Origin: a virus
Virus genome (UHGV): UHGV-0209654
Strand: one strand, 5' to 3'
Length of the DNA: 41,774 nt
In this document: positions 4,571 to 7,330 of the stretch, one piece after another
Position numbering within the stretch: position 1 is the stretch's first letter
Layout: each line of letters opens with the position of its first letter
Program-made: the position numbers and the translations under genes
The notes under the pieces: model-generated
Seen by the model: only the letters and a program-made list of their open reading frames with translations
Told to the model about the DNA's origin: nothing
The model's database searches: none

Positions 4571-5338
4571 CTATTTTACAAGGCCTGGATACTGTAAGGC
4601 GCCGTCCTGATCCGGTGTCAATGTTACCGGATCCGTTGCCATGCGGCCGTCTTGATCCAGGTAGTACCACTTGCCGTTAATCGTCTGCAGGCCTTTAAGC
4701 ATAGCACCATCAGATCCAAGGTAATACCAAGACCCTTTGTACTGGTACCAGGTGTCATGGACCATCATGCCGGCACCGTTGAACCAATACCAGAGTTCTC
4801 CATCCTTGTGCCAGTCATTAGAAACATATTTTCCTGAGCCGTCTTTTAAATAGAAGCGCCGGCCTCCATTTTCCTGCTGCCAACCTGTTTTTACTGTAAC
4901 GGGAGTTAAAAAGAGCTTCCTCTCTTCCTGACGTCTGCGGATGAGGCCAGATAATACCTTTCCGCCAGCTTTATTATACTCCAGGATTTTGGCTGCTATC
5001 TCAGAACGGGTACGAGTACCTTTAGCCGTCAATCCGTCAATACTTCCGATGTTATACGCAAAAGATACCAAGGCATCAAACTCTGGCTGCGTCCAGTTGT
5101 AAGCACTATACTTGTCCACTTTTGGACCATACTTTTTATCAACAGACTGGCGCAACCATTCATCTGCCGTTTCCTGGCTGATCCGCAGACCTTGGCAGAT
5201 TGTTGTTCCGGTGATTGCTTTGTCTGCGTTTGTGGTGCCGTATCCGATGGTCCAGACACCTACGGTATCCTGGTAGGCGGTCAGGCGGCAGCCTTCAAAT
5301 TTTTTTATGAGATTTAATCCATTATCTGATATTTTCAT
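4571..5338 (-). CDS. Endolysin: GH24 lysozyme domain + C-terminal cell-wall-binding (choline-binding-like YG) repeats
   Basis: FEGCRLTAYQDTVGVWTIGYG catalytic E/D/T triad region. C-terminal repeats WYYLGSDGAML / KWYYLDQDGRM. Confidence 0.85.
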   Translation of the reverse strand: MKISDNGLNLIKKFEGCRLTAYQDTVGVWTIGYGTTNADKAITGTTICQGLRISQETADEWLRQSVDKKYGPKVDKYSAYNWTQPEFDALVSFAYNIGSIDGLTAKGTRTRSEIAAKILEYNKAGGKVLSGLIRRRQEERKLFLTPVTVKTGWQQENGGRRFYLKDGSGKYVSNDWHKDGELWYWFNGAGMMVHDTWYQYKGSWYYLGSDGAMLKGLQTINGKWYYLDQDGRMATDPVTLTPDQDGALQYPGLVK

Positions 5339-5353
5339 AGCATTTCCTTTCTA

Positions 5354-5367
5354 TTGCGACGTCACAA
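5354..5367. repeat. Palindrome copy A (TTGCGACGTCACAA, 1 mismatch to TTGCGACGTCGCAA), 14 nt upstream of endolysin RBS
   Basis: Read directly. Lies in the 70-bp gap between the ORF6N gene stop and the endolysin start. Confidence 0.9.
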
Positions 5368-5407
5368 TTAAAAGAGCGCCCCTCTATATGAAGGACGCCC
5401 CAAAAAC

Positions 5408-5965
5408 TTACATTAATTGTCTTTTCATTTTTTCGGCTAACACACTGGTTGCTGCTTTTTTTATTGCTTTACTATGGCCTATTCGAAATGCTTTTTCCAT
5501 TTCATCTAAAGCCTCTAAAGGGAGCATTTCCAAAACCTCTCGAAACAAAGGTGCTATATCATACCCTTCCTTAACCTGTTCTACCGTTTTTGCTGGAACC
5601 GGTACTATTTCCTTTTTCTCTGGTCGTTTTTCCTTGGCCCGAAAATAAAAATCAACCAGGTAATCATATACTTCCCATGCTTTGTCCGTGTTTAAGGACT
5701 TAGCATGAAGAAGAGCTCCTTTTTCAGTCCAGAGGTATAGGTGAGATGTCCTATTTGCGACCAGGTGAACATTATTCACCTGGTTCTTGAAAGCTCTCAA
5801 CTCATCACCTGTAAGTGATATGTAATGTTTTCCTTCAACAAAGCGTTCTCTATTATTAGAGAAATTCTTTTTTATCACACCTGGAGTAGTTCCATATTCT
5901 TCAGCAATTTGTTTACTGGTTAAAACTCTAATTTCTTTTACTTCTACTGTCTGCGGTAACTGCAT
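5408..5965 (-). CDS. ORF6N-domain protein (phage antirepressor-like N-terminal domain), 185 aa
   Basis: N-terminal region (IRVLTSKQIAEEYGTTPGVIKKNFSNNRERFVEGKHY) resembles ORF6N/KilA-N-type phage-associated DNA-binding domains. RBS GAAAGGAG. Own promoter with TATAAT. Confidence 0.5.
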   Translation of the reverse strand: MQLPQTVEVKEIRVLTSKQIAEEYGTTPGVIKKNFSNNRERFVEGKHYISLTGDELRAFKNQVNNVHLVANRTSHLYLWTEKGALLHAKSLNTDKAWEVYDYLVDFYFRAKEKRPEKKEIVPVPAKTVEQVKEGYDIAPLFREVLEMLPLEALDEMEKAFRIGHSKAIKKAATSVLAEKMKRQLM

Positions 5966-5996
5966 GATAAAACTCCTTTCAAATTTTAGTTCTTGA

Positions 5997-6040
5997 AAGA
6001 AGTTTCCTGCTGCATTATAATATTTACAGAAGGAAACTTC
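5997..6040 (-). promoter_or_regulatory. Promoter/operator for ORF6N gene: 11-bp inverted repeat AGAAGTTTCCT/AGGAAACTTCT bracketing a TATAAT box
   Basis: IR arms 5997-6007 and 6030-6040. 22-bp spacer contains ATTATAAT, about 50 nt upstream of the start at 5965. Confidence 0.4.
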
Positions 6041-6046
6041 TACCCA

Positions 6047-6093
6047 AAACAGTCGTGTGTGCTTTGGTCGGTGCTACGACTGTTTTATTTTTC
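6047..6093. terminator. Bidirectional intrinsic terminator (stem AAAACAGTCGT/ACGACTGTTTT) overlapping the RHH gene stop
   Basis: 11-bp stem, T-tract ATTTTTC on + and UUUUG on the - strand reading. Separates the RHH transcript from the ORF6N gene. Confidence 0.5.
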
Positions 6094-6249
6094 TACTAAC
6101 TTCTTAATCCCTCGACTTATTGCCTCTGTTCTGTTCACACCTTCTTCTTCACAATATTTTTCCAATATTTCTTTATCCTCATTACTTATGCGAATACTCA
6201 ATTTATTCGGTCTGGGATTATCCGTTGGTCTGCCTGTCCTTGGACTCAT
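6085..6249 (-). CDS. Ribbon-helix-helix (CopG/Arc-like) small DNA-binding protein, 54 aa (not in ORF track, <60 aa)
   Basis: MSPRTGRPTDNPRPNKLSIRISNEDKEILEKYCEEEGVNRTEAISRGIKKLVEK: beta-strand then two helices. RBS GAGGTGAG 6 nt upstream. Confidence 0.55.
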   Translation of the reverse strand: MSPRTGRPTDNPRPNKLSIRISNEDKEILEKYCEEEGVNRTEAISRGIKKLVEK

Positions 6250-6266
6250 ATTCTCACCTCACTTTT

Positions 6267-6309
6267 GTCGGGCATAAATTTATTATATATTATGTCGGGC
6301 AAAAGTCAA
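6267..6309 (-). promoter_or_regulatory. Sigma-A-type promoter for RHH gene (TTGACT-N16-TATAAT) with two direct repeats TGCCCGACA (candidate autoregulatory operators)
   Basis: -35 at 6304-6309 and -10 at 6282-6287 on the - strand. Direct repeats at 6267-6275 and 6293-6301 flank the -10. Confidence 0.5.
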
Positions 6310-6336
6310 GGGATTTTTTCTCTTACAAATGGTATC

Positions 6337-6365
6337 TTGAAAAGATTTTCTGCATATGCTATAAT
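6337..6365 (+). promoter_or_regulatory. Consensus promoter TTGAAA-N17-TATAAT driving a short + strand transcript (candidate antitoxin sRNA)
   Basis: -35 at 6337-6342, -10 at 6360-6365. Divergent from, and about 28 nt away from, the RHH promoter. Confidence 0.5.
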
Positions 6366-6371
6366 GCCGTT

Positions 6372-6454
6372 AGGCAAAAAGAAATAAGTTTCCATGTTGG
6401 ACACAAAAGCGAAAGCCCCTGAGTGGTCGAGACTCAGGGGCTTTCTTCCTTTTT
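6372..6454 (+). ncRNA. Candidate approx 80-nt sRNA (RNA II-like type I antitoxin) ending at the terminator
   Basis: From predicted TSS to the intrinsic terminator. Contains AAAGAAAUAAGUUUCCAUGUUGGACAC, nearly identical to the + strand sequence across the toxin SD/start (6558-6590), hence antisense to the toxin TIR. Confidence 0.45.
6412..6454. terminator. Strong bidirectional intrinsic terminator (AAAGCCCCTGAGT...ACTCAGGGGCTTT + T-tract)
   Basis: 13-bp GC-rich stem followed by CTTCCTTTTT on +. Minus-strand reading gives stem + CGCUUUUGUGU. Shared by the convergent toxin mRNA and sRNA. Confidence 0.7.
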
Positions 6455-6486
6455 AAGCAGTTAGGCATCTGCAGGCTGGTTACCGA

Positions 6487-6573
6487 CTATTTGCCGCCGT
6501 CCAACCATTTGATGATGTAGTGGCAAACTACACCAGCCGCAACAGCGACAATAAAAGAAATAAGATTTTCCAT
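6487..6573 (-). CDS. Fst/Ldr-like type I toxin peptide, 28 aa (not in ORF track)
   Basis: MENLISFIVAVAAGVVCHYIIKWLDGGK: short polar N-terminus, one TM, charged C-terminus ending WLD..K like Fst-family toxins. RBS AAAGGGGGTG. Extended -10 (TGTTATAAT) upstream. Confidence 0.5.
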   Translation of the reverse strand: MENLISFIVAVAAGVVCHYIIKWLDGGK

Positions 6574-6657
6574 GTCAGACACCCCCTTTCCTTACCGGGT
6601 ATAGGGGCGGTAACCTAGACATTATAACATATGCATGATTTTTATTCTACTGATTTA

Positions 6658-6671
6658 TTGCGACGTCGCAA
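6658..6671. repeat. Palindrome copy B (TTGCGACGTCGCAA, perfect)
   Basis: Read directly. Between holin stop and toxin promoter, just upstream of the -35 region of the toxin promoter. Confidence 0.9.
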
Positions 6672-6722
6672 ATGGCAGCCATGACCCGGACTGCCTGCGG
6701 GAGATAGTCGGATCACCTCCTT

Positions 6723-6986
6723 CTACTTCTTGCTTGCCTGTTTGATGACCTGGTGCGCTCCGGTTGCGGCCAGACCGGATACAATACCAATAGCTGCAGC
6801 GTTGATCACATCTGTGGCTGGAAACTCTGGCATAAGATACATGCCAGCTACTCCCAGGATGCCGCCGGTCAATCCGCATACTACCGGGATAACCTCATCC
6901 TTGACCTTAGTGGTTGCCTTACATGCCATGCCGCCCAGGTAACAGATTGCTGTGATCGCTGTTACGCTTCCAATTCCAAAATCCAT
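6723..6986 (-). CDS. Holin-like membrane protein (87 aa, 2-3 predicted TM segments)
   Basis: Gly/Ala-rich hydrophobic segments (ITAICYLGGMA, LTGGILGVAGMYL, AAIGIVSGLAATGA) and charged C-terminal tail KQASKK. Lysis-cassette context. Confidence 0.55.
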   Translation of the reverse strand: MDFGIGSVTAITAICYLGGMACKATTKVKDEVIPVVCGLTGGILGVAGMYLMPEFPATDVINAAAIGIVSGLAATGAHQVIKQASKK

Positions 6987-6988
6987 AT

Positions 6989-7330
6989 CTATACCTCCTG
7001 TTCTGCCGGCTCATATGGTAAAGCCAGACATCTGTTATAAAGATCTTCTCCGGTTCCATTTCCACCCAATGCTTTATATGGCCTGAACATATACTCCAGA
7101 TTGTCTCTGTCTTCCAAGGTACAATATTTTCTTTTTAAATAAAATGTACATGCCTGGTAAAGACGGTCATGGAGGAGTGCCAGAACTCCTGCATTGATAG
7201 CATTTGTTCTGGCACGTTCTGCCTTTAACTGTTTGGATAATTTATGATATGCTCCAGAAAGCAATACAGAGATGATCCCAAACACCCATGAAACCCAATG
7301 CACAGATATGTACTGCATGATTGATTCCAT
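6989..7330 (-). CDS. Membrane protein, possibly second holin/lysis-associated (113 aa)
   Basis: Single N-terminal TM (WVSWVFGIISVLLSGAY). RBS GGAGGAATAAGTC. Directly upstream of holin. Confidence 0.4.
   Translation of the reverse strand: MESIMQYISVHWVSWVFGIISVLLSGAYHKLSKQLKAERARTNAINAGVLALLHDRLYQACTFYLKRKYCTLEDRDNLEYMFRPYKALGGNGTGEDLYNRCLALPYEPAEQEV

Follow-up and report, generated by a model that had tools for sequence, protein, structure and literature searches.

The region spanning positions 6337–6680 of the window, by which we mean the whole 41,774-nucleotide stretch analysed here (UHGV virus genome UHGV-0209654), carries what sequence analysis supports well as a type I toxin–antitoxin module of the par/Fst-like kind. 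The antitoxin is probably a convergent small RNA (sRNA) that, according to predicted RNA pairing, blocks translation of a toxin that is a membrane peptide of 28 residues. The module resides in a gut Clostridia prophage, within the interval between the holin and endolysin genes, and this segment of the window is identical to contig NZ_QUCM01000001.1 of Clostridium sp. AM22-11AC.

We place a probability of roughly 0.85 on the reading that the locus encodes an RNA-repressed membrane toxin that stabilizes a prophage or plasmid, with the sRNA lying over the AUG and the mRNA closed by helices. The functional steps of this model are drawn from the analogy with par and from conservation patterns. Transcription from the minus-strand promoter would yield an mRNA of roughly 213 nt encoding a single-helix membrane peptide. 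A helix between its 5′ and 3′ regions (GGUUACCG/CGGUAACC) would close the nascent mRNA, an upstream CCCCU element would hold the Shine–Dalgarno (SD) sequence, and the closed mRNA would be stable yet poorly translated. The plus-strand promoter would produce an RNA of roughly 83 nt that pairs with the mRNA both at the terminator and at the translation start, where, as in par, pairing would block ribosome binding. If the element were lost or sRNA synthesis stopped, the less stable sRNA would decay, the peptide would be made, and membrane damage would kill or arrest the cell. Such a response would help to maintain the element, or might shut out other phages. The module is also a candidate determinant of gut prophage stability or phage exclusion, and it could stabilize plasmids or provide a counter-selection tool in Lachnospiraceae, which are hard to engineer.

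Two predicted convergent transcription units and their relatives

The 28-codon open reading frame (ORF), its strong SD sequence and its extended −10 promoter were all found where the initial annotation had placed them (Table 1). The encoded peptide consists of a hydrophobic stretch at residues 4–21 (Kyte–Doolittle mean 2.42), Trp23 and a short charged tail, DGGK. A public nr record (DAF81868.1, named ‘toxin’) holds a 31-aa form of the peptide, which results from starting the ORF at an upstream GTG. However, this GTG falls within the SD. Among 78 family members, start codons are ATG in 57, GTG in 11 and TTG in 10, and the spacing from SD to start codon is 5–8 nt in most and 12 nt at maximum. 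The position of the GTG and this spacing thus argue for the ATG as the toxin start. The toxin promoter was missed by a promoter scan because it has no good −35 element. Across 80 family loci, the −10 sequence is TATAAT in 49 and carries the TG extension in 59, and the box lies 29–30 nt upstream of GAAAGG in 56.

Table 1. Predicted elements of the module and neighbouring genes, with positions in the window
Feature	Positions	Strand	Details and basis
Antitoxin sRNA promoter	6337–6365	+	TTGAAA 6337–6342, 17-nt spacer, TG 6357–6358, TATAAT 6360–6365
Predicted antitoxin sRNA, ~83 nt	6372–6454	+	Fold, duplex prediction, conservation; ends predicted
Bidirectional intrinsic terminator	6411–6445	both	14-bp stem (8 G-C), 7-nt loop; arms 100% complementary
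Predicted toxin mRNA, ~213 nt	6402–6615	−	Transcription start site ~6614/6615 to end of terminator tail
Toxin promoter, extended −10 TGTTATAAT	6621–6629	−	TATAAT 6626–6621, TG 6629–6628, weak −35
Closing helix, 5′ arm GGUUACCG	6608–6615	−	Minimum free energy (MFE) fold; covariation with 3′ arm
Anti-SD element CCCCU	6603–6607	−	Predicted pairing with AGGGG 6583–6587 of the SD
SD AAAGGGGGTG	6580–6589	−	6 nt 5′ of the ATG
Predicted sRNA target on toxin mRNA	6546–6583	−	SD 3′ end, AUG, codons 2–9; predicted duplex
Toxin ORF, 28 aa, MENLISFIVAVAAGVVCHYIIKWLDGGK	6487–6573	−	ORF translation
Closing helix, 3′ arm CGGUAACC	6478–6485	−	Begins 1 nt past the stop codon; MFE fold, covariation
Hol44-type holin	6723–6986	−	
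RHH protein	6085–6249	−	
ORF6N protein	5408–5965	−	
Lysozyme (endolysin) with choline-binding repeats	4571–5338	−	

The convergent promoter that had been proposed for the antitoxin is likewise present, and it matches the consensus at 11 of 12 positions; its core, ATATGCTATAATGCC, is kept in homologous loci. The predicted sRNA comprises a 5′ segment (6373–6405) complementary to the toxin translation start and a 3′ terminator hairpin with a U tail. As had been claimed, this terminator is common to both RNAs, and it has T tails on both strands (TTCCTTTTT on the plus strand and GCTTTTGTGT on the minus strand). Its stem covaries among loci, with 12 of 12 pairs changed on both sides, and the predicted sRNA and toxin mRNA overlap across it by 53 nt of perfect complementarity. 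No Rfam family matched the antitoxin RNA. A second candidate small RNA on the plus strand (6028–6092) yielded no convincing target.

A blastn search recovered the whole unit, unannotated, on small plasmids of Waltera intestinalis (5.6 kb), Mediterraneibacter gnavus (6.9 kb) and an uncultured bacterium (3.7 kb), on a 225-kb plasmid of C. perfringens, and on one phage-labelled record of 7 kb (Inoviridae). Because a bias towards the sRNA was to be avoided, further loci were fetched by using a pattern for the toxin only, which combined the KWLD codons with an SD motif; invariance of the SD across these loci is therefore by construction. The KWLD motif is also found in relatives that were retrieved without requiring it. 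This pattern returned 14 viral and 98 genome stretches, mostly from Lachnospiraceae and otherwise from other gut Clostridia, and about one third of the stretches are contigs of 4–7 kb, which is the size of small plasmids. The fetched set comprises 80 unique segments of Bacillota plasmids, phages and genomes that represent 70 distinct loci.

When the distinct loci were aligned at the terminator and then inspected, roughly 65 of the 70 were seen to keep the sRNA promoter, the complementary segment and the terminator. The sRNA genes follow a common pattern: TTGNNN-17-(ATATGC)TATAAT, a variable segment with CAT opposite the start codon, and a terminator of 13–16 bp. The same layout is seen in more distant copies carried by plasmids of Enterococcus faecium, Ligilactobacillus salivarius and Mogibacterium neglectum. 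Thus, the par-like arrangement that the initial annotation described for one locus (convergent promoters, a common terminator and a direct repeat) recurs at dozens of independent loci.

A profile search, run with an alignment whose first sequence was a member of 40 aa, found at least 2265 protein clusters (90% identity) at E ≤ 0.01, almost all of them unnamed; one homologue, from Catenibacillus scindens, bears the UniRef name ‘Type I toxin-antitoxin system Fst family toxin’. These loci point to an unannotated family that genome annotation misses and whose members are carried by gut Clostridia and some Lactobacillales, on chromosomes and in prophages as well as on small plasmids. Pfam and NCBIfam do not reach the peptide, and Rfam finds the toxin mRNA in a subset of loci. 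The conceptual gain beyond what is known of par/Fst is small and would be unlikely to surprise a specialist; the use of the family lies in annotation and as a tool.

Predicted pairing of the two RNAs and folding of the toxin mRNA

The sRNA had been said to contain an approximately 85% copy of the sequence spanning the toxin SD and first codons, and a direct repeat of this kind exists. Positions 6376–6404 and 6554–6582 are 72% identical when compared without gaps, and 25 of 29 positions (86%) agree when one 2-nt indel is allowed. Owing to this diverged repeat, the 5′ part of the sRNA is complementary to a stretch that runs from the 3′ end of the SD through the AUG and codons 2–9. With the terminator left out, RNAduplex predicts that this 5′ part and the 5′ region of the toxin mRNA form a duplex of −39.1 kcal/mol, broken by two 2-nt bulges into blocks like DRa and DRb. 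Dinucleotide shuffles gave a mean of −18.1 ± 2.8 kcal/mol and 0 of 1000 reached the observed value, so the proposed pairing at the toxin start holds up as a prediction.

Similar duplexes are predicted at other loci. For 33 diverse loci, the mean energy is −39.7 kcal/mol over 32 bp, and the duplex spans the start codon in all 32 assessable cases. It is always interrupted by a bulge of 2–3 nt near codons 2–3, which leaves two blocks at about −10 to +6 and +8 to +22. This two-block form resembles the DRa/DRb arrangement of par.

The predicted pairing is also specific to each locus. We compared the 150 nt downstream of each toxin with toxin start regions, using 76 partners each, and the best partner was the toxin start region of the same locus in 66 of 76 cases. 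Cognate duplexes among the fetched loci average −53.2 kcal/mol, compared with −34.4 ± 6.8 kcal/mol for non-cognate ones. An alignment of six loci, in which all elements are kept, shows sRNA 5′ segments that track their own toxin start regions through matched variants (GAAATAAG/GAAATAAG, GACAGAAG/GACAGAAG and GATGAGAAT/GATGAGAAT for sRNA/toxin). Recent duplication of the repeat, rather than selection, is unlikely to explain part of this cognate specificity, because the loci have diverged from one another.

The toxin mRNA is predicted to fold with an MFE of −82.5 kcal/mol. To represent its structure among relatives, a closing helix, an anti-SD helix, an ORF hairpin and the terminator were drawn by hand on 35 diverse mRNAs. 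In this structure, 84% of cells are paired, compared with 39–54% when partners are slid, and the covariation score is 0.329 compared with 0.09–0.16, a value as high as which was reached by 0 of 500 shuffles. Covariation in the closing helix is evident at columns 10/159 (UA in 18 loci, CG in 12) and 12/157 (AU in 17, GC in 12). The anti-SD helix is paired in 87.5% of cells in the 35 loci and exhibits no covariation there, both of its sides being nearly invariant. RNAalifold run on a MAFFT alignment of the toxin mRNAs did not recover the 5′ helices. A different local 5′ hairpin, in which GUUACC pairs with GGUAAC 20 nt downstream, is plausible, but the alignment fits it less cleanly.

The mRNA also corresponds to an existing RNA family. 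The Rfam model RF02442 (SpF66_sRNA) matches positions 6402–6614 of the minus strand over its full length (positions 1–239 of 239) with 51.3 bits and an E value of 8.5e-11, where the gathering score is 42 bits. Translation of the model consensus gives MSLILELVLTIIADVIAGIILYFVCKWLDGKE, whose C-terminal part (...IIADVIAGIILYFVCKWLDGKE) includes CKWLDGKE. Since the consensus encodes such a peptide, the SpF66 ‘sRNA’ family is really a toxin mRNA, and from its sequence we infer that it represents pneumococcal fst. Of 19 other loci of the KWLD toxin family, just 3 score above the SpF66 threshold. In the literature, the name SpF66 led only to papers on malaria vaccines.

The holin–endolysin junction and other readings of the locus

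The initial annotation held that the locus had been inserted at the junction of the holin and endolysin genes, and sibling phages bear this out. Phage loci were fetched by holin similarity (80 in total), and those with a holin sharing at least 91% identity with that of the window were tabulated. The spacing between holin and lysin genes is 133 nt in three loci with no toxin, 412–423 nt in 12 loci with one module, 735–796 nt in three loci with two tandem modules, and 1388–1392 nt in two loci that, like the window, carry the module together with the RHH and ORF6N genes. Among phages with holin identities of 97% or more, some carry the module and others lack it. The occurrence of 0, 1 or 2 copies among siblings marks the module as a mobile moron at a variable junction. 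One two-module locus was read from end to end, and there both modules come with a convergent sRNA of their own.

Window position 5352 abuts position 6313 directly in sibling phages, which marks the RHH and ORF6N genes (5353–6312) as a separate insertion; judged by this comparison, they lie outside the toxin–antitoxin module. Phages with roughly 85% identical holins have a spacing of 41 nt and no toxin. Toxin-less phages carry a terminator-like hairpin, GCCCTGAG...CTCAGGGC, at the junction, and the N terminus of their lysin differs.

The module lies on the strand of the lysis genes, in the interval bounded by the holin and endolysin genes. It is unlikely, although conceivable, that the phage has recruited the toxin into its own life cycle, either as a lysis-timing trigger or as a device for abortive infection or superinfection exclusion. 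In the latter variant, the toxin would fire once a rival phage had halted the transcription of host and prophage genes. If such recruitment had occurred, the 0, 1 or 2 tandem modules at the junction would reflect an arms race.

Quite improbable, in our view, is a role for the peptide as a lysis accessory, namely a holin-like or membrane-depolarizing timing trigger that the antisense RNA silences during lysogeny or early infection. The position of the module, bounded by the holin and endolysin genes and on their strand, does fit such a role, and type I toxins are often called holin-like (PMC6563280). In Pfam, the peptide matches only Phage_holin_6_1, and that weakly (E = 0.12), and relatives match Phage_holin_3_3 weakly, but these holin scores fall far under the cut-off. 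Furthermore, the module is found with its own two promoters on plasmids, both large ones and those of 3.7–7 kb, with no lysis genes nearby. Some phages that have 99% identical holins lack it altogether, which indicates that it is dispensable for lysis.

Degenerate copies exist in the family. Three loci encode an altered C terminus ending in WLDGVSHS, and one of these (L013) is without the sRNA promoter or complementarity, its cognate duplex reaching just −29.4 kcal/mol. By extension, the locus in the window could be a decaying relic of an old duplication that has lost expression and toxicity. We regard this as very improbable, since every element in the window is intact, its promoters are of consensus type, and the exact 28-aa sequence is on record on 32 contigs. 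In addition, highly diverged loci still show the ORF, the mRNA helices and the complementarity, with compensatory changes.

That the plus-strand RNA mainly controls another target, for example as a countertranscript in plasmid copy control or as an sRNA acting in trans, with only an incidental match to the peptide gene, can be given hardly any credence. The sub-threshold match to Rfam ctRNA_pGA1 (24.2 bits; gathering score 45) is weak and owes its score to the terminator hairpin. Several copies on plasmids, including plasmids of 3.7–7 kb, lie next to or near rep genes, but the module is also present in phages and chromosomes where no rep gene is close by, and its complementary segment tracks the start codon region of the toxin at each locus.

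Relation to known type I systems

The features described above favour an RNA-repressed membrane toxin that probably belongs to a divergent clade of the Fst/Ldr superfamily. This assignment is based on the RNA model, the Trp signature and the architecture, and not on protein HMMs, which fail. The signature of Fst/Ldr toxins is a conserved Trp between a hydrophobic transmembrane (TM) helix and a charged C terminus (PMC7472228; PMC2887945), and the window peptide has this layout. Most, but not all, Fst/Ldr members also have a P/D/S/T-XXX-G(C) motif within the TM helix. The window peptide has A10-V-A-A-G14 (AXXXG) at this point, whereas the motif reads SXXXG or SXXXS in most of its relatives and DXXXG in the SpF66 consensus, a form reported for one S. 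pneumoniae Fst clade (Weaver 2020, PMC7472228).

The Fst/Ldr likeness that had been noted for the peptide therefore stands as far as the Trp signature is concerned, but it does not extend to the protein models: the suggested check against Fst-family HMMs gave no match to Pfam Fst_toxin or NCBIfam type_I_tox_Fst, formally one of the outcomes that the initial annotation had listed as refuting. Against this outcome stand the Rfam score of the toxin mRNA above the gathering threshold, the Trp signature and the UniRef name of one homologue. For the window peptide, neither PF13955 (Fst_toxin) nor PF13940 (Ldr_toxin) produced a match at E ≤ 10. Fst_toxin matches 3 of 47 relatives, with 14.9 bits at best against a gathering score of 36, and Ldr_toxin matches 4 of 47 (best E = 0.031), all below the cut-off. 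Similarly, NF033608 (type_I_tox_Fst; cut-off 26 bits) did not match the window peptide, and the best-scoring relative is the SpF66 consensus with 18.9 bits. NF047374 (CD_typeI_toxin; cut-off 60 bits) also failed to match it, with weak matches to the TM segment in 28 of 47 family peptides, the best of which attains 21.3 bits over profile positions 2–18 of 51. Searches of the PDB with the single sequence and with a profile returned nothing relevant and did not recover the solved Fst and PepA1 structures. Full-text literature searches based on the Fst sequence, or on KWLD together with toxin, yielded nothing useful.

The closest resemblance in layout is to the par locus of pAD1 from Enterococcus faecalis. 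Features used for this comparison were convergent promoters, a 5′ structure that sequesters the ribosome-binding site (RBS), and a single-TM peptide with a Trp and a charged tail (PMC7472228). Both loci have convergent promoters and a common bidirectional terminator, and in both, direct repeats aim the antitoxin RNA at the SD and start-codon region in two blocks. The predicted toxin mRNA is also like that of par in having a 5′ structure that would sequester the RBS with a helix that uses the extreme 5′ end. In contrast to the PXXXG of pAD1 Fst, the window peptide has AXXXG and its relatives mostly S-XXX-S/G; the window peptide is further distinguished by an invariant KWLD motif and a very short charged tail, and the setting differs in that the module is carried in the lysis region of a prophage and has gut Clostridia as hosts. 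RNA–RNA pairing in par is nucleated by a YUNR U-turn motif in the loop of the toxin mRNA terminator. The loop of the window mRNA, CUCGACC, contains CUCG, which fits YUNR. The motif is not conserved in the family, where it occurs in just 9 of the 42 mRNAs and 2 of the 42 sRNAs.

A second comparison is with the Fst-A/Fst-B loci of S. pneumoniae and with SpF66, whose covariance model the toxin mRNA of the window matches end to end. [quoted passage not shown] Differences from the window locus are the DXXXG of the SpF66 peptide, the sequence around its SD, and the chromosomal, tandem arrangement of the pneumococcal loci.

Prophage-borne systems offer further parallels. Type I modules of C. difficile prophages (for example, CD0977.1–RCd11) have been shown to help maintain the element, and they resemble the window locus in combining a small TM toxin with an antisense RNA in a gut-Clostridium prophage (PMC7699646). 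The C. difficile toxin profile, with 51 positions, is longer than the window peptide. We know of no KWLD motif in C. difficile type I toxins. In B. subtilis, the prophage pairs BsrG/SR4, YonT/SR6 and TxpA/RatA consist of convergent toxin and antisense RNAs that overlap at their 3′ ends, as the two RNAs of the window locus are predicted to do, and no sequence similarity was detected between these systems and the window locus. The B. subtilis antitoxins work mainly via this 3′ overlap and promote RNA degradation, whereas at the window locus a separate direct repeat appears to aim the antitoxin RNA at the translation start.

Modules at the holin-lysin junction

The junction between the holin and lysin genes seems to be a hot spot for recombination. 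Two toxin-sRNA modules lie in tandem within this interval in the sibling phages L133 (3330-3960), L124 and L140, where the toxins are MADSILTFLISVVAGVVSYYICKWLDRDK plus either MDYLISFIVAVAAGVACHYIIKWLDGDK or MESVLSF..., and each module of L133 has its own convergent sRNA, with complementary segments that differ. Degenerate copies are found in L013 (4886-5160), L122 and L138, which carry an altered toxin C-terminus (...WLDGVSHS). Unrelated sequence occupies the place of the sRNA promoter and complementarity in L013, and the cognate duplex, that is, the predicted pairing of the sRNA side of a locus with its own toxin start region, amounts to just -29.4 kcal/mol. The module-free holin-lysin spacer of a toxin-less sibling phage (L125, 3261-3400) retains a terminator-like hairpin, GCCCTGAGTTATCCTCAGGGCTTTTT, that is similar to the terminator of the toxin-sRNA module, and the lysin following this spacer has a different N-terminus (MRNISLCHPRLQK...).

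Promoters of the toxin-sRNA module

Around their -10 boxes (6351-6366 and 6620-6635), the convergent promoters of the module carry sequences that are inverted copies of each other with 94% identity (TGCATATG(C/T)TATAATG). At the sRNA promoter, ATATGCTATAATGCC is kept even in very diverged loci. This conservation exceeds what a -10 box needs, and the sequence may constitute a protein-binding or discriminator element.

The RHH and ORF6N insertion

In sibling phages L007, L009, L010 and L036, the position equivalent to 5352 of the window directly abuts that of 6313, and the roughly 960-bp segment carrying the RHH and ORF6N genes is an insertion separate from the module. The same cassette is again found together with a toxin-sRNA module in L130 and L132. 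The imperfect inverted repeat upstream of the RHH gene overlaps a - strand promoter and looks like an operator for RHH autoregulation. In the region 5993-6092, a second consensus promoter followed by a terminator predicts an RNA of about 65 nt, which would lie between the ORF6N and RHH genes and overlap the 3′ end of the latter; a target duplex sought for this RNA yielded none that was convincing.

Features near the toxin-sRNA module
Feature	Position	Strand	Remarks
ORF6N gene	5408-5965	-	within ~960-bp insertion 5353-6312
Second consensus promoter, TTGAAA-17-TATAAT	5993-6021	+	
Inverted repeat	6000-6012 / 6027-6039		flanks second + strand promoter
Intrinsic terminator and T run	6046-6056 / 6076-6086		downstream of second + strand promoter
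RHH gene	6085-6249	-	within ~960-bp insertion 5353-6312
Imperfect inverted repeat	6254-6277 / 6290-6313		75%; holds TGTCGGGCA(T/A)AA twice
Promoter, TTGACT-16-TATAAT	6309-6282	-	upstream of RHH gene
113-aa ORF	6989-7330		hydrophobic N-terminus; immediately upstream of holin

Other neighbouring features

Searches of Pfam and NCBIfam gave no match for the 113-aa ORF, a candidate second component of the lysis cassette. In the Clostridium perfringens plasmid locus L002, the toxin-antitoxin locus adjoins a THF riboswitch (2232-2333, 91 bits), which resides upstream of the S component of a folate ECF transporter.
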